Of a stretch of DNA of 64,000 bases, positions 7,641-60,300 are shown in pieces. The stretch spans positions 16,650,945 to 16,714,944 of the forward strand of contig NC_090416.1 of NCBI RefSeq assembly GCF_036365525.1, in the 5' to 3' direction. A program made the translations under genes and the position numbers. Positions within the stretch are counted from its first letter, which is position 1. Each line of letters begins with the position of its first letter. Under the pieces are notes generated by a model that was given only the letters and a program-made list of their open reading frames with translations, had not been told where the DNA came from and did no database searches. This DNA comes from Heterodontus francisci. Its lineage: Eukaryota.

Positions 7641-7859
7641 ACCACTCTGTCTCTCCATCTGTCTATCTGTCTATGTATCTGACCACTCATCNNNNNNNNN
7701 NNNNNNNNNNNNNNNNNNNNNNNNNNNNNNNNNNNNNNNNNNNNNNNNNNNNNNNNNNNNNNNNNNNNNNNNNNNNNNNNNNNNNNNNNNNNNNNNNNNN
7801 NNNNNNNNNNNNNNNNNNNNNNNNNNNTAGTTCCAGACCGGTAAGTTTAAAAAACTTAC

Positions 7860-8032
7860 TTCGGGGATTCTCGCACCAGGCTCGGAGGGCGGAGTTAACC
7901 TCGGGAATTTTCGGAGCAAACTCGGAGATTCTCGGTCAGACTCGGAGGCCGGAATTAATCTCGGGGATTCTCGGACAGAGTCGGAGGGCGTGGTTAACCT
8001 CGGTGATTCTCGGACAGACTCGGAGGGCGGAG
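7860..8032 (+). repeat. About 39-bp GC-rich tandem repeat upstream of CR1 ORF1 (also 24243-24390, 40830-41140, 57390-57562)
   Basis: Unit ACTCGGAGGGCGGAGTTAACCTCGGGGATTCTCGGACAG. Confidence 0.88.
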
Positions 8033-8214
8033 TTTGTGTCGATGGGCCGAAGGGCCTGTTTCTGTGCTGTATCTCTAAATAAAAATAAAAATAAAAAAAT
8101 AAAATAATATTTATAGTCGAAATCCAGCACTAGGGGCCATATATTTAATTATAACAATTTAGTAAGGATTTAATAAGTATTTATTTTATATTAATTAACT
8201 AATTAGTGATAGAA

Positions 8215-9135
8215 ATGTCAGTTAAAGGGGTGAAGTGCTTCACCTGTGAGATGTGGGAAGTCCGTGACACTTCCAGTATTCCGGGCGACTCCGCCTGCAG
8301 GAAGTTTACCCAGTTGCAGCTCCTCACAGACCACATGGATCGGTTGGTGCGGCAACTGGATGCACTTAGGAGCATGCAGGTGGCAGAGAGCGTCATAGAC
8401 AGGAGTTTTAGAGAAGTGGTTACACCCAATGTGCAGGCAGATAGATGGGAGACCGCTAGAAGGGGCAGGCAGTCAGTGCAGGAATCCCCTGTGGCTATCC
8501 CCCCTCGCTACACCATTTTGGATACGGTTGGGGGGGATGGCCTAGCAGGGGAAAACAACAGCAGCAGCCAGAGCAGTGGCACCACAGCTATCACTGTTGT
8601 TCAGCAGGGAGGGACAAAGCGCAAAGAACAATAGTTATCGGGGACTCTATAGTCAGGGGCACAGATAGGCGCGAATGTGGACGTGAAAGAGACTCCAGGA
8701 TGGTATGTTGCCTCCCTGGTGCCAGGGACAAGGATGTCTCTGAATGGACAGGGGGCATTCTGAAGGGCGAGGATGCACAGCCAGAGGTTGTGGTACACAT
8801 CGGTACCAATGACAGAGGCAGGAAGAGTGATGAGGTCCTGCAGGGGGAGTTTAGGGAGTTAGGTAGAAAGTTAAAAAAACAGGACCTCTAGGGTTGTCAT
8901 CTCTGGATTAGTCCCTGTGCCACGTGCCAGTGAGGCTAGAAATAGGAAGATAGTGCAGCTAAACACGTGGCTGAGCAGCTGGTGTAGAAGGGAGGGTTTC
9001 AGATATCTGGACCATTGGGCTCTCTTCAGGGACAGATGGGACCTGTACAAGAAGGACGGGTTGCATCTAAACTGGAGGGGCACTAATATCCTGGCTGCAA
9101 AGTTTGCTAGCGTCACTCGGGAGGGTTTAAACTAG
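8215..9135 (+). pseudogene. CR1 ORF1 (zinc finger/leucine zipper and esterase), frameshifted
   Basis: Split over ORFs 8206-8634, 8700-8891 and 8917-9135. Ends REGLN*. Confidence 0.88.
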
Positions 9136-12074
9136 TGTGGCAGGGGGGTGGGAACCAGAGCAGTGGGACAGCTAGAAAAATAAATGAGGAGGACATAGTA
9201 AATAAGGCCAGTAAGACTAAGAGGAAGAGCAGGCAGGAAGATGTTGCTGAGCACAGCGGGACTGGTGGTCTGAAGTGCATTTCTTTCAATGCGAGAAGTA
9301 TAACAGGTAAGGCAGATGAACTTAGAGCTTGGATTAGTACTTGGAAATATGATGTTGTTGCTATTACAGAGACTTGGTTGAGGGAAGGGCAGGATTGGCA
9401 GCTAAATGTTCCAGGCTTTAGAAGCTTCAGGCGGGATAGAGGAGGATGTAAAAGGGATGGGGGAGTTGCATTACTGGTTAAGGAGAATATCACAGCTGTA
9501 CTGCGGGAGGACACCTCAGAGAGGTCATGCAGCGAGGCAATATGGGTGGAGCTCAGGAATAGGAAGGGTGCAGTCACGATGTTGGGGGTTTACTACAGGC
9601 CTCCCAACAGCCAGCGGGAGGTAGAGGACAAGATATGTAGACAGATTTTGGAAAGATGTAAAGGTAACAGGGTTGTGGTGGTGGGTGATTTTAACTTCCC
9701 CTATATTGACTGGGACTCACTTAGTGCTAGGGGCTTGGATGGGGCATAATTTGTGAGGAGCATCCAGGAGGGCTTCTTGAAGCTGTATGCAGACAGTCCA
9801 ACTAGGGATAGGGCCATTCTGGACCTGGTATTGGAGAATCAGCCCGGCCAGGTGGTCGAAGTTTCAGTGGGGGAACATTTCGGGAGCAGTGACCATAATT
9901 CCATATGTTTTAAGGTACTTGTGGATAAGGATAAGAGTAGTCCTCGGGTGAAGGTGCTAAATTGGGGGAAGGCTAATTATAACAATATTAGGCAGGAATT
10001 GAAGAATTTAGATTGGGGGCGGCTGTTTGAGGGTAAATCAACATCTGACATGTGGGAGTCTTTCAAACGTCAGCTGATTAGAATCCAGGACCAGCATGTT
10101 CCTGTGAGGAAGAAAGACAAGTTTGGCATGTTTGGGGAAATTTGGATAACACTGGATATTGTGAGCCTAGTCAAAAAGAAAAAGGAAGCATTTGTGAGGG
10201 CTGGAAGGCTAGGAACAGACGAAGCACTTGAGGAACATAAAGACAGTGGGAAGGAACTTAAGCAAGGAGATAGGAGGGCTAAAAGGGGTCATAAAAGGTC
10301 ATTGGCAAACAGGATTAAGGAGAATCCCAAGGCTTTGTATACATATATAAAGAGCAAGAGGGTAACCAGGGAAAGGGTTGGCCCACTCAAGGATAGAGAT
10401 GGGAATCTATGTGTGGAGCCAGAGGAAGTGGGCGAGGTGCTAAATGAGTACTTTGCATCAGTATTCACCAAAGAGAAGGACTTGGTGGATGATGAGCCTA
10501 GGGAAGGGAGTGCAGATAGTCTCAGTCATCTTATTGTTAAAAAGGAGGAGGTGTTGGGTGTTTTGCAAAGCATTAAGGTAGATAAGTCCCCAGGGCCTGA
10601 TGGGATCTACCCTAGAATACTGAGGGAGGCAAGGGAAGAAATTGATGGTTTCTTGTCAGAAATCTTTGCATCATTTTTGGCTACAGGTGAGGCCCCAGAG
10701 GACTGGAGAATAGCCAATGCTGTTCCTTTGTTTAAGAAGGGTGGCAAGGATAATCCAGGAAATTATAGGCCGGTGAGCCTTCCGTCAGTGGTAGGGAAAC
10801 TATTAAAGAGGATTATTCGGGACAGGATTTACTCCCATTTGGAAACAAACGAACTTATTAGTGAGAGACAGCATGGTTTTGTGAAGTGGAGGTTGTGTCT
10901 TACTAATTTGAATGAGTTTTTTGAGGAAGTGACGAAGAAGATTGATGAAGGAAGAGCAGTGGATGTTATCTATATGGACTTTATTAAAGCCTTTGAGAAG
11001 GTCCCGCATGGCAGACTGGTACAAAAGGTAATGTCACATGGGATCAGATGTGAGCTGGCAAGATGGATACAGAACTGGCTCGGTCATAGAAGACAGAGGG
11101 TATCAGTGGATGGGTGTTTTTCTGAATGGAGGGATGTGACTAGTGGTGTTCCGCAGGGATCAGTGCTGGGACCTTTGCTGTTTGTAGTATATATAAATGA
11201 TTTGGAGGAAAATGTAGCTGGTCTGATTAGTAAGTTGGCGGACGACACAAAGGTTGGTGGAGTTGCGGATAATGATGAGGATTGTCAGAGGATACAGCTG
11301 GATATAGATCGGTTGGAGACTTGGGTGGAGAAATGGCAGATGGAGTTTAATCTGGACAAATGTGAGGTAATGCATTTTGAAAGGACTAATGCAGGTGGGA
11401 GGTATACAGTAAATGGCAGAACCGTTAGGAGTATTGACAGACAGAGAAATCTGGGCGTTGCGGTCCACAGGTCACTGAAAGTGGCAACGCAGGTGGATAA
11501 GGTAGTCAGGAAGGCATACGGCATGCTTGCCATCATTGGTCGGGGCATAGAGTATAAAAATTGGCAAGTCATGTTGCAGCTGTACAGAACCTTAGTTAGG
11601 CCACACTTAGAATACTGCGTGCAATTCTGGTCGCCACACTACCAGAAGGACGTGGAGGCTTTGGAGAGGGTACAAAGGAGGTTTATCAGGATGTTGCCTG
11701 GTCTGGAGGGCATTAACTATGAGGAGAGGTTGGAAAAAGTCGGATTGTTTTCACTGGGACGACGGAGGTGGAGGGGCGACATGATAGAGGTTTACAAAGT
11801 TATGAGCGGCATGGACAGAGTGGATAGTCAGAAGCTTTTTCCCAGGGTGGAAGAGTCAGTTACTAGGGGACATAGGTTTAAGGTGCGAGGGGCAAAGTTT
11901 AGAGGGGATGTGCGAGGCAAGTTTTTGACACAGAGGGTGGTGAGTGCCTGGAACTTGCTGCCAGGGGAGGTGGTGGAAGCAGATACGATAGCGACGTTTA
12001 AGAGACATCTTGACAAATACATGAATAGGAAGGAAATAGAGGGATTTGGGCCCCGGAAGTGCAGAAGGTGTTAG
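9135..12074 (+). pseudogene. CR1 ORF2 endonuclease/reverse transcriptase with one in-frame stop (TAA 9747-9749)
   Basis: ORFs 9135-9749 and 9753-12074 are in the same frame. The RT motif reads LADD here and FADD in units 2 and 4. Confidence 0.93.
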
Positions 12075-12409
12075 TTTAGGCAGGCATCAAGATCGGTGCA
12101 GGCTTGGAGGGCCGAATGGCCTGTTCCTGTGTGGTACTGTTCTTTGTTNNNNNNNNNNNNNNNNNNNNNNNNNNNNNNNNNNNNNNNNNNNNNNNNNNNN
12201 NNNNNNNNNNNNNNNNNNNNNNNNNNNNNNNNNNNNNNNNNNNNNNNNNNNNNNNNNNNNNNNNNNNNNNNNNNNNNNNNNNNCTCGCTCTATCTATTTG
12301 TCTGTCTGTCCATCTCTATCTATCTGTCTGTCCATCTCTGTCTGTCTGTCTGTCTATCCCTCAGTACTGACCCTTTGACAGTGCGGCACTCCCTCAGTAC
12401 TGACCCTTT

Positions 12410-13630
12410 GGGAACTGAATATTCCAGGGTATTTGACAGTTTGGAATGACAGGAAGCAAGGAAAAGGAGGTGGTGTAGTTCAGTTAATAAAGGATGAGAT
12501 CAGTACAGTAGTGAGAAATGATCTTGTATCAGAAAATCAAGATGTGGAATCAGTTTGGGTGGAGATATGAAATAGCATAAATTCATACAGTAGCTGCACT
12601 GTGGGACAGAGTATAAATCAAGAAATAAGGGGGGCTTGTAAGGAAAATACTGCAGTAATCCTGGGTGATTTTAATCTTCATATAAATTGGAGTAATCAAA
12701 CTGGTAAAGTTAGATAGAGGATGAGTTCATGGAGTGTACTCAGGACAGTTTCTTAGAACAATACACTCTGGAACCAATCCGGGAGCAGGATATTTTAGAC
12801 CTGGTAATGTGTAAGGAGACGGAATTAATTAATGACCTCTTAGTAAAGGAAGAATAGAAAAGCAGAATATTATTTACATGGAGAGAGACTGCAGAATGCT
12901 GCAGTACAGAGGGATCTGGGTGTCCTTGTACATGAATCACAAAATGTTAACATGCAGGTTCAGAAAGTAATTAGGAAGAGAAATGGAATGTTTGTATTTA
13001 TTGCAATGGGGATGGAATATAAAACTAGGGCCATCTTGCTACAACTGTACCGGGTATTGGTGAGACCGCACCTAGAATACTGCATGCAGTTTTGGTCTCC
13101 TTATTTAAGGAGGGATATACTTGCATTGGAAGCAGTTCAGAGAAGGTTCACTTGGCTGATTCCTGGGATGAAGGGATTGTCTGATAAGGAAAGGTTGAGC
13201 AGGTTGGGCCTGTTTGGAGTTTAGAAGAATGAGAGGTGATCTTATTGAAATGTGAAAGGTTCTGAAGGGGTTTGACGGGGTAGATACTGAGAGGATGTTT
13301 CCCCTCATGGGAGAATCTAGAACTAGGGGGAACAGTTACAGAATACGGGGTCTCCCATTTAAGACGGAGATGAGGAGGAATTTCTTCTCTGAGGGTCATT
13401 AATCTTTGGAATTCTCTTCCCCAGGGAGCAGTGGAGGCTGGGTCATTGAATATATTCAAGGCTGAGTTGGAGAGTTTTTTGATCTCCAAGGGAGTTGAGG
13501 GTTATGGTGGGGGGCAGACAGGAAAGTGGAGATAAGGTCACAATCAGATCATCCATGATCTTATCGAATGGCGGAACAGTCTCGATGGCCCGAATGGCCT
13601 TCTCCTGTTCTTATTTCTTATGCTTTTATG
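12410..13630 (+). mobile_element. Older, internally deleted CR1 (endonuclease fragment fused to RT 3' end); recurs in each unit
   Basis: GDFN-like fragment, then LVRPHLEYC..W ORF pieces and a CR1 tail GGCC...CCTGTTCTTATTTCTTATG. Confidence 0.85.
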
Positions 13631-21113: not shown

Positions 21114-21465
21114 GGGCGGCACAGTGGCGCAGTGGTTAGCACTGCAGCCTCACAGCTCCAGGGACCGGGTTCGATTCCGGGTACTGCCTGTGTGGAGTTT
21201 GCAAGTTCTCCCTGTGTCTGCGTGGGTTTTCTCCGGGTGCTCCGGTTTCCTCCCACAAGCCAAAAGACTTGCAGGTTGATAGGTAAATTGGCCATTATAA
21301 ATTGTCACTAATATAGGTAGGTGGTAGGGTAATATAGGGACAGGTGGGGATGTTTGGTGGGAATATGGGATTAGTGTCGGATTAGTATAAATGGGTGGTT
21401 GATGTTCGGCACAGACTCGGTGGGCCGAAGGGACTGTTTCATTGCTGTATCTCTAATCTAATCTA
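21114..21465 (+). mobile_element. tRNA-derived SINE, HE1/V-SINE-like, unit 2
   Basis: A box TGGCGCAGTGG, B box GGTTCGATTCC, V-domain-like core, CR1-like tail ending (CTAAT)n. Absent from units 1 and 4. The family name is from recall. Confidence 0.88.
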
Positions 21466-24206: not shown

Positions 24207-27200
24207 NGCGGAGTTCCAGACCGGTAAGTGCAAAAACCTTACTTCGGGGATTCTCGGACAGACTCGGAGGGCGGAATTAACCTCGGTGATTCTCGGACAG
24301 ACTCGGAGGGCGGAGTTAACCTCGGGGATTCTCGGACAGACTCGGAGGGCGGAGTTAACCTCGGGGATTCTCGGACAGACTCGGAGGGCGGTGTTCTCCT
24401 CGATGGGTCGAAGGGCCTGTTTCAGTGCTGTATCTCTAAATAAAAAATAAAAATAAATAAAATAATATTTATAGTAGAAATCTAGCACTGGGGACCATAT
24501 CGTTTATTATAACAATTTAGTAAGGATTTAATAAGTATTTATTTTATATTAATTAACTAATTAGTGATAGAAATGTCAGTTAAAGGGGTGAAGTGCTTCA
24601 CCTGTGAGATGTGGGAAGTCCGTGACACTTCCAGCATTCCGGGCGACTCCGCCTGCAGGAAGTTTACCCAGTTGCAGCTCCTCACAGACCACATGGATCG
24701 GTTGGAGCGGCAACTGGAAGCACTTGGGAGCATGCAGGTGGCAGAGAGCGTCATAGACAGGAGTTTTAGAGAAGTGGTTGCACCCAATGTGCAGGCAGAT
24801 AGATGGGTGACCGCTAGAAGGAGCAGGCAGTCAGTGCAGGAATCCCCTGTGGCTATCCCCTTCTCCAACAAGTATACAGTTTTGGATACTGTTGGGGGGG
24901 ATGGCCGAGCAGGGGAAAACAACAGCAGCAGCCAGAGCAGTGGCACCACGGCTATCACTGTTGTTCAGCAGGGAGGGACAAAGCGCAAAGAACAATAGTT
25001 ATAGGGGACTCTATAGTCAGGGGCACAGATAGGCGCATCTGTGGACGTGAAAGAGACTCCAGGATGGTATGTTGCCTCCAGGGTGAAGGATGTCTCTGAA
25101 CGGACAGGGGGCATTCTGAAGGGCGAGGGTGAACAGCCAGAGGTTGTGGTACACATCGGTACCAATGACAAAGGCAGGAAGAGTGCTGAGGGCCTGCAGG
25201 GGGAGTTTAGGTAGTCAGGTAGAAAGTTGTAATCTCTGGATTAAACCCTGTGCCACGTGCCAGAGAGGATAGAAATAGGAAGATAGTGCAGCTAAACACG
25301 TGGCTGAGCAGCTGGTGTAGAAGGGAGGGTTTCAGATATCTGGACCATTGGGCTCTCTTCAGGGACAGATGGGACCTGTACAAGAAGGACGGGTTGCATC
25401 TAAACTGGAGGGGCACTAATATCCTGGCTGCAAAGTTTGCCAGCGTCACTCGGGAGGGTTTAAACTAGTGTGGCAGGGGGGTGGGAACCAGAGCAGTGGG
25501 ACAGCTAGAAAAATAAATGAGGAGGACATAGTAAATAAGGCCAGTAAGACTAAGTGGAAGAGCAGGCAGGAAGATGTTGCTGAGCACAGCGGGACTGGTG
25601 CTCTGAAGTACATTTCTTTCAATGCGAGAAGTATAGCAGGTAAGGTAGATGAAATTAGAGCTTGGATTAGTACTTGGAAATATGATGTTGTTGCTATTAC
25701 AGAGACTTGGTTGAGGGAAGGGCAGGATTGGCAGCTAAATGTTCCAGGCTTTAGAAGCTTCAGGTGGGATAGAGGGGGATGTAAAAGGGGTGGGGGAGTT
25801 GCATTACTGGTTAAGGAGAATATCACAGCTGTACTGCGGGAGGACACCTCAGAGGGGTCATGCAGCGAGGCAATATGGGTGGAGCTCAGGAATAGGAAGG
25901 GTGCAGTCACGAAGTTGGGGGTTTACTACAGGCCTCCCAACAGCCAGCGGGAGGTAGAGGACAAGATATGTAGACAGATTTTGGAAAGATGTAAAGGTAA
26001 CAGGATTGTGGTGGTGGGTGATTTTAACTTCCCCGATATTGACTGGGACTCACTTAGTGCTAGGGGCTTGGATGGGGCAGAATTTGTGAGGAGCATCCAG
26101 GAGGGCTTCTTGAAACAGAATGTAGATAGTCCAACTAGGGATGGGGCCATTCTGGACCTGGTATTGGGGAATGAGCCCGGCCAGGTGGTCGAAGTTTCAG
26201 TGGGTGAACATTTCGGGAGCAGTGACCATAATTCCATAAGTTTTAAGGTACTTGTGGATAAGGATAAGAGTAGTCCTCGGGTGAAGGTGCTAAATTGGAG
26301 GAAGGCTAATTATAACAATATTAGGCAGGAATTGAAGAATTTAGATTGGGGGCGGCTGTTTGAGGGTAAATCAACATCTGACATGTGGGAGTCTTTCAAA
26401 CGTCAGCTGATTAGAATCCAGGACCAGCATGTTCCTGTGAGGAAGAAAGACAAGTTTGGCATGTTTCGGGAAATTTGGATAACACTGGATATTGTGAGCA
26501 CAGTCAAAAAGGAAAAGGAAGCATTTGTAAGGGCTGGAAGGTTAGGAACAGACGAAGCACTTGAGGAATATAAAGACAGTGGGAAGGAACTTAAGCAAGG
26601 AGTTAGGAGGGCTAAAAGGGGTCATAAAAAGTCATTGGCAAACAGGATTAAGGAGAATCCGAAGTCTTTTTATACATGTATAAAGAGCAAGAGGGTACCA
26701 GGGAAAGGGTTGGCCCACTCAAGGATAGAGATGGGAATCTATGTGTGGAGCCAGAGGAAATGGGCGAGGTGCTAAATGAGTACTTTGCATCAGTATTCAC
26801 CAAAGAGAAGGACTTGGTGGATGATGAGCCTAGGGAAGGGAGTGCAGATAGTCTCAGTCATGTCATTATTAAAAAGGAGGAGGTGTTGGGTGTCTTGCAA
26901 AGCATTAAGGTAGATACGTCCCCAGGGCCTGATGGGATCTACCCTAGAATACTGAGGGAGGCAATGGAAGAAATTGCTGGGGCCTTGACAGAAATCTTTG
27001 CATCATCATTGGCTACAGGTGAGGCCCCAGAGGACTGGAGAACAGCCAATGTTGTTCCTTTGTTTAAGAAGGGTGGCAAGGATAATCCAGGAAATTATAG
27101 GCCGGTGAGCCTTACGTCAGTGGTTGGGAAATTATTAGAGAGGATTCTTCGGGATAGAATTTACTCCCATTTGGAAACAAACGAACTTATTAGCGAGAGA

Positions 27201-40797: not shown

Positions 40798-43700
40798 TTT
40801 CAGACCGGGAAGTATAAAAAACTTACTTTGGGGATTCTCGCACCACGCTCGGAGGGCGGAGTTAACCTCGGGGATTTTCGGAGCAGACTCGGAGATGCTC
40901 GGATCGACTCGGAGATTCTCGGACAGATTCGGAGGGCGGAGTTCACCTCGGTGATACTCGGGGCAGCCACGGAGGGCGGAGTTAACCTCGGGGTCTCTCG
41001 GAGCAGACTCGGAAGGCGGAGTTAATCTCGGGGATTCTCGGAGCAGACTCGGAAGGTGGAGTTAACCTCGGGGATTCTCGGACAGTCTCGGATGGCGGAG
41101 TTAACCTCGGGGATTCTCGGACAGACTCGGCGGGCGGAGTTCATGTCGATGGGCCGAAGGGCCTGTTTCAGTGCTGTATCTCGAAATAAAAATAAAAAAA
41201 TAAAAAATAAAATAATATTTATAGTAGAAATCTAGCACTAGGGACCATGTAGTTAATTATAACAATTTAGTAATGATTTAATAAGTATTTATTTTATATT
41301 AATTAACTAATTAGTGATAGAAATGTCAGTTAAAGGGGTGAAGTGCTTCACCTGTGAGATGTGGGAAGTCCGTGACACTTCCAGTATTCCGGGCGACTCC
41401 GCCTGCAGGAAGTTTACCCAGTTGCAGCTCATCACAGACCACATGGATCGGTTGGAGCGGCAACTGGATGCACTTAGGAGCATGCAGGTGGCAGAGAGCA
41501 TCATAGACAGGAGTTTTAGAGAAGTGGTTACACCCAATGTGCAGGCAGATAGATGGGTGACCGCTAGAAGGGGCAGGCAGTCAGTGCAGGAATCCCCTGT
41601 GGCTATCCCCCTCGCTACATCATTTTGGATACTGTTGGGGGGGATGGCCTATCAGGGGAAAACAACAGCAGCAGCCAGAGCAGTGGCACCACGGCTGGCA
41701 CTGTTGTTCAGCAGGGAGGGACAAAGCGCAGAAGAGCAATAGTTATAGGGGACTCTGTAGTCAGGGGCACAGATCGGCGCTTCTGTGGACGTGAAAGAGA
41801 CTCCAGGATGGTATGTTGCCCACCTGGTGCCAGGGTCAAGGATGTCTCTGAACGGACAGGGGGCATTCTGAAGGGCATGGGTGAACAGCCAGAGGTTGTG
41901 GTACACATCGGTACCAATGACATAGGCAGGAAGAGTGATGAGGTCCTGCAGGGGGAGTTTAGGGAGTTAGGTAGAAAGTTAAAAAAAACAGGATTCTTGG
42001 GTTGTAATCTCTGGATTAGTCCCTGTGCCACGTGCCAGAGAGGCTAGAAATAGGAAGATAGTGCAGCAAAACACATGGCTGAGCAGCTGGTGTAGAAGGG
42101 AGGGTTTCAGATATCTGGACCATTGGGCTCTCTTCAGGGACAGATGGGACCTGTACAAGAAGGACGCTTTGCATATAAACTGGAGGGGCACTAATATCCT
42201 GGCTGCAAAGTTTGCTAGCGTCACTCGGGAGGGTTTAAACTAGTGTGGCAGGGGGGTGGGAACCAGAGTAGTGGGACAGCTAGAAAAATAAATGAGGAGG
42301 ACATAGTAAATAAGGCCAGTAAGACTAAGTGGAAGAGCAGGCAGGGAGATGTTGCTGAGCACAGCGGGACTGGTGCTCTGAAGTGCATTTTTTTCAATGC
42401 GAGAAGTATAACAGGTAAGGCAGATGAACTGAGAGCTTGGATTAGTACTTGGAAATATGATGTTGTTGCTATTACAGAGACTTGATTGAGGGAAGGGCAG
42501 GATTGGCAGCTAAATGTTCCAGGCTTTAGAAGCTTCAGGCGGGATAGAGGGGGGTGTAAAAGGGATGGGGGAGTTGCATAACTGGTTCAGGAGAATATCG
42601 CAGCTGTACTGCGGGAGGACACCTCAGAGAGGTCATGCAGCGAGGCAATATGGGTGGAGCTCAGGAATAGGAAGGGTGCAGTCACGATGTTGGGGGTTTA
42701 CTACAGGCCTCCCAACAGCCAGCGGGAGGTAGAGGAGCAGATATGTAGACAGATTTTGGAAAGATGTAAAGGTAACAGGGTTGTGGTGGTGGGTGATTTT
42801 AACTTCCCCTATATTGACTGGGACTCACTTAGTGCTAGGGGCTTGAATGGGGCAGAATTTGTGAGGAGCATCCAGGAGGGCTTCTTGAAACAGTATGTAG
42901 ATAGTCCAACTAGGGATAGGGCCATTCTGGACCTGGTATTGGGGAATGAGCCCGGCCAGGCAGTCGAAGTTTCAGTGGGGGAACATTTCGGGAGCAGCGA
43001 CCATAATTCCATATGTTTTCAGGTACTTGTGGATAAGGATAAGAGTAGTCCTCGGGTGAAGGTGCTAAATTGGGGGAAGGCTAATTATAACAATATTAGG
43101 CAGGAATTGAAGAATTTAGATTGGGGGCGGCTGTTTGAGGGTAAATCAACATCTGACATGTGGGAGTCTTTCAAACGTCAGCTGATTAGAATCCAGGACC
43201 AGCATGTTCCTGTGAGCAAGAAAGACAAGTTTGGCATGTTTCGGGAAATTTGGATAACACTGGATATTGTGAGCCTAGTCGAAAAGAAAAAGGAAGCATT
43301 TGTAAGGGCTGGAAGGCTAGGAACAGACGAAGCACTTGAGGAATATAAAGACAGTGGGAAGGAACTTAAGCAAGGAGTTAGGAGGGCTAAAAGGGGTCTT
43401 AAAAAGTCATTGGCAAACAGGATTAATAAGAATCCAAAGGCTTTTTATACATATATAAAGAGCAAGAGGGTAACCAGGGAAAGGGTTGGCCCACTCAAGG
43501 ATAGAGAAGGGAATCTATGTGTGGAGCCAGAGGGAATGGGCGAGGTGCTAAATGAGTACTTTGCATCAGTATTCACCAAAGAGAAGGACTTGGTGGATGA
43601 TGAGCCTAGGGAAGGGAGTGCAGATAGTCTCAGTCATCTCATTATCAAAAAGGAGGAGGTGTTGGGTGTCTTGCAAAGCATTAAGGTAGATACGTCCCCA

Positions 43701-57357: not shown

Positions 57358-60300
57358 GAGTTCCAGACCGGTAAGTATAAAAAACTTACTTCGGGGATTC
57401 TCGCACCAGGCTGGGAGGGCGGAGTTAACCTCGGGAATTTTCGGAGCAAACTCGGAGATTCTCGGTCAGACTCGGAGGGCGGAGTTAACCTCGGTGATTC
57501 TCGGACAGAGTCGGAGGGCGTGGTTAACCTCGGTGATTCTCGGACAGACTCGGAGGGCGGAGTTTGTGTCGATGGGCCGAAGGGCCTGTTTCTATGCTGT
57601 ATCTCTAAATAAAAATAAAAATAAAAAAATAAAATAATATTTATAGTCGAAATCCAGCACTAGGGACCATATAGTTAATTATAACAGTTTAGTAAGTATT
57701 TAATAAGTATTTATTTTATATTAATTAACTAATTAGTGATAGAAATGTCAGTTAAAGGGGTGAAGTGCTTCACCTGTGAGATGTGGGAAGTCCGTGACAC
57801 TTCCAGCATTCCGGGCGACTCCGCCTGCAGGAAGTTTACCCAGTTGCAGCTCCTCACAGACCACATGGATCGGTTGGAGCGGCAACTGGATGCAATTAGG
57901 AGCATGCAGGTGGCAGAAAGCGTCATAGACAGGAGTTTTGGTGAAATGGTTACACCCAAGGTGCAGGCAGATCGATGGGTGACCGCTAGAAGGGGCAGGC
58001 AGTCAGTGCAGGAATCCCCTGTGGCTATCCCCCTCTCGAACAAGTATACAGTTTTGGATACTGTGGGGGGGGGGGGGATGGCCTATCAGGGGAAAACAGC
58101 AGCAGCAGCCAGAGCAGTGGCACCACGGCTGGCACTGTTGTTCAGCAGGGAGGGACAAAGCGCAAAGAACAATAGTTATGGTGGACTCTATAGTCAGGGG
58201 TACAGATAGGCGCATCTGTGGACGTGAAAGAGACTCCAGGATGGTATGTTGCCTCCCTGGTGCCAGGGACAAGGATGTCTCTGAATGGACAGGGGGCATT
58301 CTGAAGGGCGAGGATGCACAGCCAGAGGTTGTGGTACACATCGGTACCCATGACAGAGGCAGGAAGAGTGATGAGGTCCTGCAGGGGGAGTTTAGGGAGT
58401 TTGGTAGTAAGTTAAAAAAAACAGGACCTCTAGGGTTGTAATCTGTAGATTAGTCCCTGTGCCACGTGCCAGAGAGGCTAGAAATAGGAAGATACTTCAG
58501 CTAAACACGTGGCTGAGCAGCTGGTGTAGAAGGGAGAGTTTCAGATATCTGGACCATTGGGCTCTCTTCAGGGACAGATGGGACCTGTACAAGAAGGACG
58601 GGTTGCATCTAAACTGGAGGGGCACTAATATCCTGGCTGCAAAGTTTGCTAGCGTCACTCGGGAGGGTTTAAACTAGTGTGGCAGGGGGGTGGGAACCAG
58701 ATTAGTGGGACAGCTAGAAAAATAAATGAGGAGGACATAGTAAATAAGGCCAGGAAGACTAAGAGGAAGAGCAGGCAGGAAGATGTTGCTGAGCACAGGG
58801 GGACTGGTGGTCTGAAGTGCATTTCTTTCAATGCGAGAAGTATAGCAGTTAAGGCAGATGAACTTAGAGCTTGGATTAGTACTTGGAAATATGATGTTGT
58901 TGCTATTACAGAGACTTGGTTGAGGGAAGGGCAGGATTGGCAGCTAAATGTTCCAGGCTTTAGAAGCTTCAGGCGGGATAGAGGGGGATGTAAAAGGGAT
59001 GGGGGAGTTGCATTACTGGTTAAGGAGAATATCGCAGCTGTACTGCGGGAGGACACCTCAGAGAGGTCATGCAGCGAGGCAATATGGGTGGAGCTCAGGA
59101 ATAGGAAGGGTGCAGTCACGATGTTGGGGGTTTACTACAGGCCTCCCAACAGCCAGCGGGAGGTAGAGGACAAGATATGTAGACAGATTTTGGAAAGATG
59201 TAAAGGTAACAGGTTTGTGGTGGTGGGTGATTTTAACTTCCCCTATATTGACTGGGACTCACTTAGTGCTAGGGGCTTGGATGGGGCATAATTTGTGAGG
59301 AGCTTCCAGGAGGGCTTCTTGAAACAGTATGTAGATAGTCCAACTAGGGATAGGGCCATTCTGGACCTGGTATTGGAGAATCAGCCCGGCCAGGTGGTCG
59401 AAGTTTCAGTGGGGGAACATTTAGGGAACAGTGACCATTATTCCATAAGTTTTAATATACTTGTGGATAAGGATAAGAGTAGTCCTCGGGTGAAGGTGCG
59501 AAATTGGGGGAAGGCTAATTATAACAATATTAGGCAGGAATTGAAGAATTTAGATTGGGGGGCGGCTGTTTGAGGGTAAATCAACATCTGACATGTGGGA
59601 GTCTTTCAAACGTCAGCTGATTAAAATCCAGGACCAGCATGTTCCTGTGAGCAAGTAAGACAAGTTTGGCATGTTTCGGGAAATTTGGATAACACTGGAT
59701 ATTGTGAGCCTAGTCAAAAAGAAAAAGGAAGCATTTGTGAGGGCTGGAAGGCTAGGAACAGACGAAGCACTTGAGGAACATAAAGACAGTGGGAAGGAAC
59801 TTAAGCAAGGAGATAGGAGGGCTAAAAGGAGTCATAAAAGGTCATTGGCAAACAGGATTAAGGAGAATCCCAAGGCTTTTTATACATATATAAAGAGCAA
59901 GAGGGTAACCAGGGAAAGGGTTGGCCCACTCAAGGATAGAGATGGGAATCTATGTGTGGAGCCAGAGGAAATGGGCGAGGTGCTAAATGAGTACTTTGCA
60001 TCAGTATTCACCAAAGAGAAGGACTTGGTGGATGATGAGCCTAGGGAAGGGAGTGCAGATAGTCTCAGTCATCTCATTATTAAAAAGGAGGAGGTGTTGG
60101 GTGTTTTGCAAAGCATTAAGGTAGATAAGTCCCCAGGGCCTGATGGGATCTACCCTAGAATACTGAGGGAGGCAAGGGAAGAAATTGATGGGTTCTTGTC
60201 AGAAATCTTTGCATCATTTTTGGCTACAGGTGAGGCCCCAGAGGACTGGAGAATAGCCAATGCTGTTCCTTTGTTTAAGAAGGGTGGCAAGGATAATCCA

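Follow-up and report, generated by a model that had tools for sequence, protein, structure and literature searches.

Programmed −1 ribosomal frameshifting on a slippery heptamer is textbook biology, and the heptamers known to serve in this way include GGGUUUA of the yeast L-A virus and the variant G UUA AAC of equine arteritis virus. On mammalian ribosomes, U_UUA_AAC is among the most shift-prone heptamers (PMC5009743; published systems are described here from the available excerpts of the articles cited), and coronaviruses of the infectious bronchitis virus (IBV) type carry it between open reading frames (ORFs) 1a and 1b. The arterivirus of porcine reproductive and respiratory syndrome (PRRSV) has a −2/−1 site in nsp2, GG_GUU_UUU with CCCANCUCC, at which PCBP and nsp1beta attach to an unstructured C-rich motif whose working range is confined to spacings of 9–11 nt (PMC4937337). 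Two Dictyostelium long interspersed nuclear elements (LINEs), TRE5-A and TRE3-A, depend on −1 frameshifting for ORF2 according to a review legend (PMC5911963). How ORF2 is translated from a two-gene LINE RNA has been called unclear (PMC3708506), and the LINE cases studied point to reinitiation. Here we describe the ORF1–ORF2 junction of a CR1 LINE in a 64,000-nt window (the whole stretch of DNA analysed) of Heterodontus francisci (assembly GCF_036365525.1, contig NC_090416.1, positions 16,650,945 to 16,714,944 of the forward strand). The junction carries a real, deeply conserved two-part signal: U UUA AAC, a stop codon, seven free bases and a run of G residues (G-run). The signal probably represents a site of −1 frameshifting that has a non-canonical stimulator and lacks the structured one of the canonical class, and we put the probability of a programmed −1 frameshift at the end of ORF1, yielding an ORF1–ORF2 fusion protein, at roughly two in three.

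The CR1 junction has the heptamer of the coronavirus ORF1a/1b site (PMC5009743) in the same phase, and in both systems the downstream ORF encodes the polymerase. The virus requires a pseudoknot, whereas none is conserved in CR1; the CR1 stop codon abuts the heptamer, and CR1 is a nuclear LINE. By analogy, the closest parallel to the G-run arrangement is the PRRSV site, which has no downstream fold and places a short linear motif past a 10-nt spacer (PMC4937337), much as the CR1 G-run begins at +11 in 25 of 26 lineages. The PRRSV motif is C-rich and works with PCBP and nsp1beta, whereas the candidate motif of CR1 is a G-run. The Dictyostelium elements, like CR1, are LINEs of the apurinic/apyrimidinic endonuclease (APE) type, but they belong to another clade and have another ORF1 (PMC5911963). 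Chicken CR1, turtle PsCR1 and ZfL2-1 share with the window element an esterase ORF1 and an endonuclease–reverse transcriptase (RT) ORF2 (PMC3905857, PMC4316615). The excerpts on these three elements say nothing on the route of ORF2 translation, and the word ‘frameshift’ does not occur in PMC3905857, PMC4316615, PMC3708506 or an avian CR1 preprint. A literature search returned no report of CR1 frameshifting; the 1997 papers on full-length CR1 (Haas, Kajikawa) lie outside its coverage and may remark on the overlap. A 2016 review of frameshifting contains no mention of CR1 in its first 300,000 of 449,034 characters. New here is the G-run at a fixed 10-nt distance, kept at synonymous positions without a conserved fold.

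The ORF1–ORF2 junction in the window

ORF1 ends with GAG GGT TTA AAC TAG (9121–9135), and an open −1 frame begins at 9111, directly after a TAG at 9108–9110. At the junction this frame translates as GGFKLVWQGGG and continues through a 54-codon linker into the endonuclease. Its earliest in-frame ATG is at 9579, past the NARS (9288) and ITETW motifs. The original prediction had given these positions for the ORF1 end, the opening of the −1 frame and the late AUG, as well as two in-phase heptamers, GGGTTTA (9123–9129) and TTTAAAC (9126–9132), and all of them match the sequence. The features around the junction are as follows.

8215–9135 (+): ORF1, with a Cys-rich N-terminus and an SGNH/GDSL esterase; broken by indels, last 86 codons open, ending in REGLN and the stop
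9123–9129 (+): second heptamer, G GGU UUA; lineage-specific and likely incidental
9126–9132 (+): slippery heptamer, U UUA AAC; from the sequence and from conservation across lineages (27 rows)
9126–9287 (+): entry of ORF2 in the −1 frame, FKL followed by a 54-codon hydrophilic linker without ATG
9133–9135 (+): ORF1 stop codon, abutting the heptamer; a stop in 25 of 27 lineages
9136–9142 (+): seven variable bases (0.02–0.88 bits per column, length constant), forming with the stop a fixed 10-nt spacer
9143–9148 (+): G-run, candidate unstructured 3′ stimulator; from conservation across lineages
9279–9731 (+): AP-type endonuclease domain of ORF2 (PF03372, E 1.1e-15)
9579–9581 (+): earliest in-frame ATG of ORF2, within the endonuclease
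9750–12074 (+): remaining ORF2 past a stop at 9747–9749, with the RT at 10743–11408 (PF00078, E 5.5e-31)

ORF2 thus matches the Pfam families PF03372 (endonuclease) and PF00078 (reverse transcriptase), and the ORF1 esterase family, SGNH PF13472, is recognized with E 3e-14 on the intact homolog L038 and falls below the cut-off on the last 86 codons in the window. This layout is that of an esterase-bearing CR1 LINE, an assignment made from domain layout and homologs; the tree described below is built from the ORF1 esterase.

The window copy is decayed, with indels in ORF1 and an ORF2 stop (9747–9749) that is specific to the copy. The window is a section of a tandem array whose units of about 16.4 kb are 94.5–97.4% identical, and the 15-mer at the junction is found four times in the window against 0.15 expected. 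The array comprises at least 29 units at about 16.28–16.86 Mb (G000:C46) and accounts for 29 among the best 40 matches in the genome. The junction therefore mirrors a parent element and is not that of a live locus. The identity among units agrees with the earlier view that the repeated sites in the window are duplicates and no independent evidence. The copy at 25454 has CAG in place of the upstream −1 stop, and its earliest in-frame methionine is codon 310.

Conservation of the heptamer across CR1 lineages

The sample consists of 27 lineage representatives, 10 from the H. francisci genome and 17 from metagenome loci. Searches of the shark genome with diverged ORF1 proteins gave nine further groups, separated by eye. 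Another 45 loci came from a metagenome scan: the 17 that reach the junction were used, and 26 stop short of it. L107, which has an intact heptamer, a changed stop and a broken frame, and L108, which lacks a recognizable junction, were excluded. In the 17 metagenome loci the site was set by the best short-motif match near the position predicted from ORF1, a procedure that is partly circular; the placed site shares its frame with the upstream esterase helix in 15 of them. The rows of the ORF1 tree, which excludes three with broken frames, sit on several deep branches, namely a bird/reptile-type clade, one that contains the chimaera protein, a distant one (about 35–40% identity) and that of the window element.

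TTAAA is present in all 27 lineages, preceded directly by T in 26 and followed directly by C in 26. The complete U UUA AAC is exact in 25 of 27, the exceptions being one G UUA AAC and one U UUA AAU. It lies in phase with the upstream ORF, as in canonical −1 frameshifting, and a stop codon stands right behind it in 25 lineages (TAG 17, TAA 7, TGA 1). The terminal leucine of ORF1 is encoded by TTA in 27/27, compared with 57 of 420 Leu codons in the background (14%), and the terminal asparagine by AAC in 26/27, compared with 70 of 154 (45%). In this alignment, 31 further conserved columns have a commonest codon at just 28–77%. Identity at 4-fold degenerate codons is 44–50% within groups and 0.21–0.30 between the three groups, and those sites are therefore saturated. 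The codon before TTA specifies eight amino acids (G, A, T, S, C, H, Y and F) and has T as its third base in 26 of 27 lineages, the exception being TCG; a T at this position, −7, is relevant only for −1 re-pairing. Constraint at the heptamer acts on nucleotides, beyond the need for particular amino acids. The check attached to the original prediction asked for conservation of TTTAAAC in phase beyond amino-acid constraint, and the 27 rows, from deeply diverged CR1 lineages, bear it out at synonymous sites. Its second heptamer, GGGUUUA, is present in 6 of 27 lineages and is not conserved.

A G-run at a fixed distance from the heptamer

The onset of the G-run lies exactly 10 nt past the heptamer in 25 of 26 lineages, with G at +11 in 25/26, +12 in 26/26, +13 in 25/26, +14 in 24/25 and +15 in 22/25. 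In ORF2, +11 and +14 fall on the third bases of codons. The codon that contributes the first G as its third base specifies seven different amino acids, and the codon that follows is GGG in 23 of 25 lineages, compared with a background usage of 36% for Gly. The G-run is fixed at synonymous positions and is therefore a second nucleotide-level signal.

The 3′ segment folds no better than shuffled sequences in any of five stretches (z −0.14 to +0.91). What is conserved of the G-rich stimulator proposed earlier is a brief run of G residues at constant spacing and no folded structure. A long-range partner for the G-run was tried as a further candidate and rejected: the search pattern located the site in 7 of 14 long loci, the best duplexes differ by family and one family has no C-run.

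Reading frame and start codons of ORF2

Of the 24 lineages with a visible endonuclease domain, 21 have it in the −1 frame; 19 are stop-free, and FKL to ETW spans 63–120 codons. The remaining three off-frame lineages are single copies, apparently with indels. A protein search recovered 30 copies of the window family, 28 of them with an intact heptamer and 26 with a −1-frame endonuclease. Of the 21 copies that are stop-free to the ETW motif, 18 have no methionine before ETW. The absent AUG is a trait of the family and not of one copy's decay. In a young CR1 family of the shark genome that was likely active recently, ORF2 is open for 963 codons from FKL in six of the ten copies read (L169, L171, L172, L173, L175 and L179), with the first methionine at codon 85, beyond NARS and ETW. 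Three young copies were examined further: ORF1 is intact, there is no CTG, GTG or TTG before codon 55, and the only near-cognate codons in that interval are ACG, ATC, AAG and AGG. The DxExNPGP motif of 2A/StopGo LINEs is absent, by eye, from 24 N-terminal linkers of ORF2.

Proposed frameshifting and its alternatives

The observations comprise the signal, its conservation at synonymous sites, the −1 register of ORF2, the variable linker before the endonuclease and, in young intact copies, the missing early AUG. In the mechanism we propose, a minority of ribosomes would slip back one base on U UUA AAC, with tRNA-Leu and tRNA-Asn re-pairing from UUA AAC to UUU AAA. Pausing of the ribosome may be due to the slow stop codon and the G-run, the latter perhaps acting as a contact sequence for a protein or for the ribosome itself and not as a fold. 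In the window family the predicted product is ...REGLN-LVWQGGG..., its two halves joined by the variable linker. The majority of ribosomes would terminate and release ORF1p, giving a high ratio of ORF1p to ORF2p. Frameshifting and reinitiation could also operate side by side.

A wider version of this model can be offered only tentatively. The CR1 LINEs that dominate in birds, reptiles and sharks might make their RT as a gag-pol-like fusion by an ancient −1 frameshift, with a bare G-run exactly 10 nt past the U UUA AAC-stop as a stimulator of a new type; a host G-tract protein or ORF1p could recognize it as a trans factor, or the entry channel of the ribosome could do so. If so, a major group of animal LINEs uses a retroviral strategy, CR1 ORF2p would be redefined as an esterase–endonuclease–RT fusion, and a G-run without a fold would join the known types of stimulator. 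Frameshifting would also explain how intact CR1 copies function without an ORF2 start codon, which bears on the annotation of active copies. The signal itself is short (22 nt) and fully specified.

Several points weigh against frameshifting. The pseudoknot or stem-loop 5–9 nt downstream that marks the canonical class was not found: no pseudoknot or hairpin is conserved across 25 lineages (mean z −0.14), as judged with a folding program that has no pseudoknot model and in a G/A-rich region with few pairing partners. Just 8 of 25 lineages have a predicted G-quadruplex, a candidate considered and rejected, and the young intact family has none; natural G-quadruplex stimulators are described as not known in the excerpt of the 2016 review. 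An AUG before the endonuclease, the feature that was to speak against the original prediction, is missing from the six young copies with an open ORF2, but one precedes NARS in 11 of 21 lineages (none in 9, one ambiguous). Some of these AUGs are very early, a UAAUG spanning the stop in two lineages and an AUG two bases past the stop in four related bird-type loci. Among candidates of 715–2040 aa, a weak test, there is no natural in-frame ORF1–ORF2 protein, only two unrelated gene models, and ORF2 has no recognized protease, so that a fusion would remain uncleaved. The characterized LINEs L1 and SART1 rely on reinitiation. Finally, the 27 rows are related to each other, and their grouping was made by eye.

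Termination–reinitiation with an optional AUG is an unlikely but serious alternative, in which ribosomes restart beside the stop, on an AUG if there is one and otherwise on another codon, and make free ORF2p, the heptamer and the G-run serving to hold the ribosome. Precedent exists in SART1, with UAAUG and a downstream RNA element (PMC3708506), and in mammalian L1, where ORF2 initiation is AUG-independent (PMC5009743). Like CR1, both have bicistronic RNA, and the UAAUG overlap recurs in 2 of 27 CR1 lineages; unlike the predicted CR1 product, their ORF2p is separate, and the excerpts describe no slippery heptamer for them. The in-frame AUGs before NARS fit reinitiation, as does UAAUG in two of the seven TAA lineages. 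So does the abutment of stop and heptamer in 25 of 27 lineages, for which tandem slippage has no strict need. Against this, a conserved AUG at or next to the ORF1 stop, as in SART1, is not seen (UAAUG in 2 of 27 lineages and a next-codon AUG in 4), and the codon overlapping the stop varies freely: it is ATG in 2/27, GTG in 1/27 and otherwise AAT, GAT, GGT, GTT, GTC and so on. The taGUG once suggested as a start is therefore not conserved. Reinitiation also gives no reason for the conserved bases, the T at −7 among them, to form an X XXY YYZ word in phase. An upstream UGGGA, a motif of the calicivirus type, amounts in the window family to Trp-Asp codons, and the frog, turtle and lizard proteins have other residues there.

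A sister family (L137–L156 and L098) has TAA TG at the junction, an in-frame UAAUG stop–start overlap, with heptamer and G-run intact. It is a natural test case for frameshifting versus reinitiation.

An improbable hybrid would have ORF1p released at the stop and the unrecycled ribosome slide by −1 and resume without methionine, making free ORF2p from the Leu codon. It covers the heptamer, the abutting stop (25/27), the −1 register and the absent AUG together and entails no uncleaved fusion, but the long variable linker before the endonuclease suits a joint between domains better than a free N-terminus, and we know of no natural example of such a post-termination slide.

The least probable explanation is an RNA-processing signal, with ORF2 reached in some other way: UUUAAA is a minor poly(A) hexamer, G-tracts aid 3′ processing and TAG would supply the AG of a splice acceptor, but TAA or TGA in 8 of 25 stops leaves no conserved acceptor AG, neither the exact spacer nor the phase is explained, and contigs, in which RNA ends are not visible, span the junction of a young copy without a gap in two of four runs (three of the four only guessed to be RNA), with GT..AG ends at none of the eight joints listed.

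Homologs of ORF1

ORF1 is homologous to turtle, lizard and frog proteins, and the homologs listed are named from sharks, rays, coelacanth, a teleost, frogs, turtles, lizards and a snake. An LN C-terminus is present in 83 of 120 ORF1 homologs among the matches listed, from cartilaginous fish to turtles and snakes and at the protein level only, and this speaks for the conserved signal. In these 83, the residue before LN is one whose codon can end in T in 81, compared with 42 and 52 at the two preceding positions; this bias was not counted as evidence, hydrophobic residues at −6 and −7 giving an equal figure (80/83). A search of viral contigs returned no relative. One homolog labelled Pseudomonas aeruginosa (P0012) is 65% identical to the window CR1 ORF1 and ends in REGLN, and is probably host DNA in a bacterial record. 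Two gene models from other organisms (P0030 and P0091) continue from the ORF1 esterase into FKL and a linker, probably through indels in individual copies, and so display the word of the −1 frame in protein.

Flanks of the element and neighbouring sequence

The outer parts of the element and the further copies of the junction in the array are listed here.

8105–8214 (+): CR1 5′ untranslated region, the part common to dispersed copies; alignments begin at 8105 in 17 of 39 loci, and the true 5′ end may lie further upstream
12075–12148 (+): CR1 3′ untranslated region, leading into a masked stretch; alignments to dispersed copies stop at 12148
25454–25468 (+): identical junction, array unit 2
42229–42243 (+): identical junction, array unit 3
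58663–58677 (+): identical junction, array unit 4

The CR1 3′ end, where a 3′ hairpin and a microsatellite tail were looked for, meets the masked stretch at 12149. Rfam has no matches within the window. Within 7829–8104, short tandem repeats at 7829–8035 recur upstream of 3 of 39 dispersed copies at 66–70% identity. After them, just 5′ of the common boundary at 8105, comes an A-rich tail that resembles the 3′ end of a LINE or short interspersed nuclear element (SINE). A piece of another, older endonuclease-type LINE at 12408–12817 is 64% identical to a stretch of L038, and a tRNA-like sequence at 21118–21189 without a valid anticodon is probably the head of a SINE.

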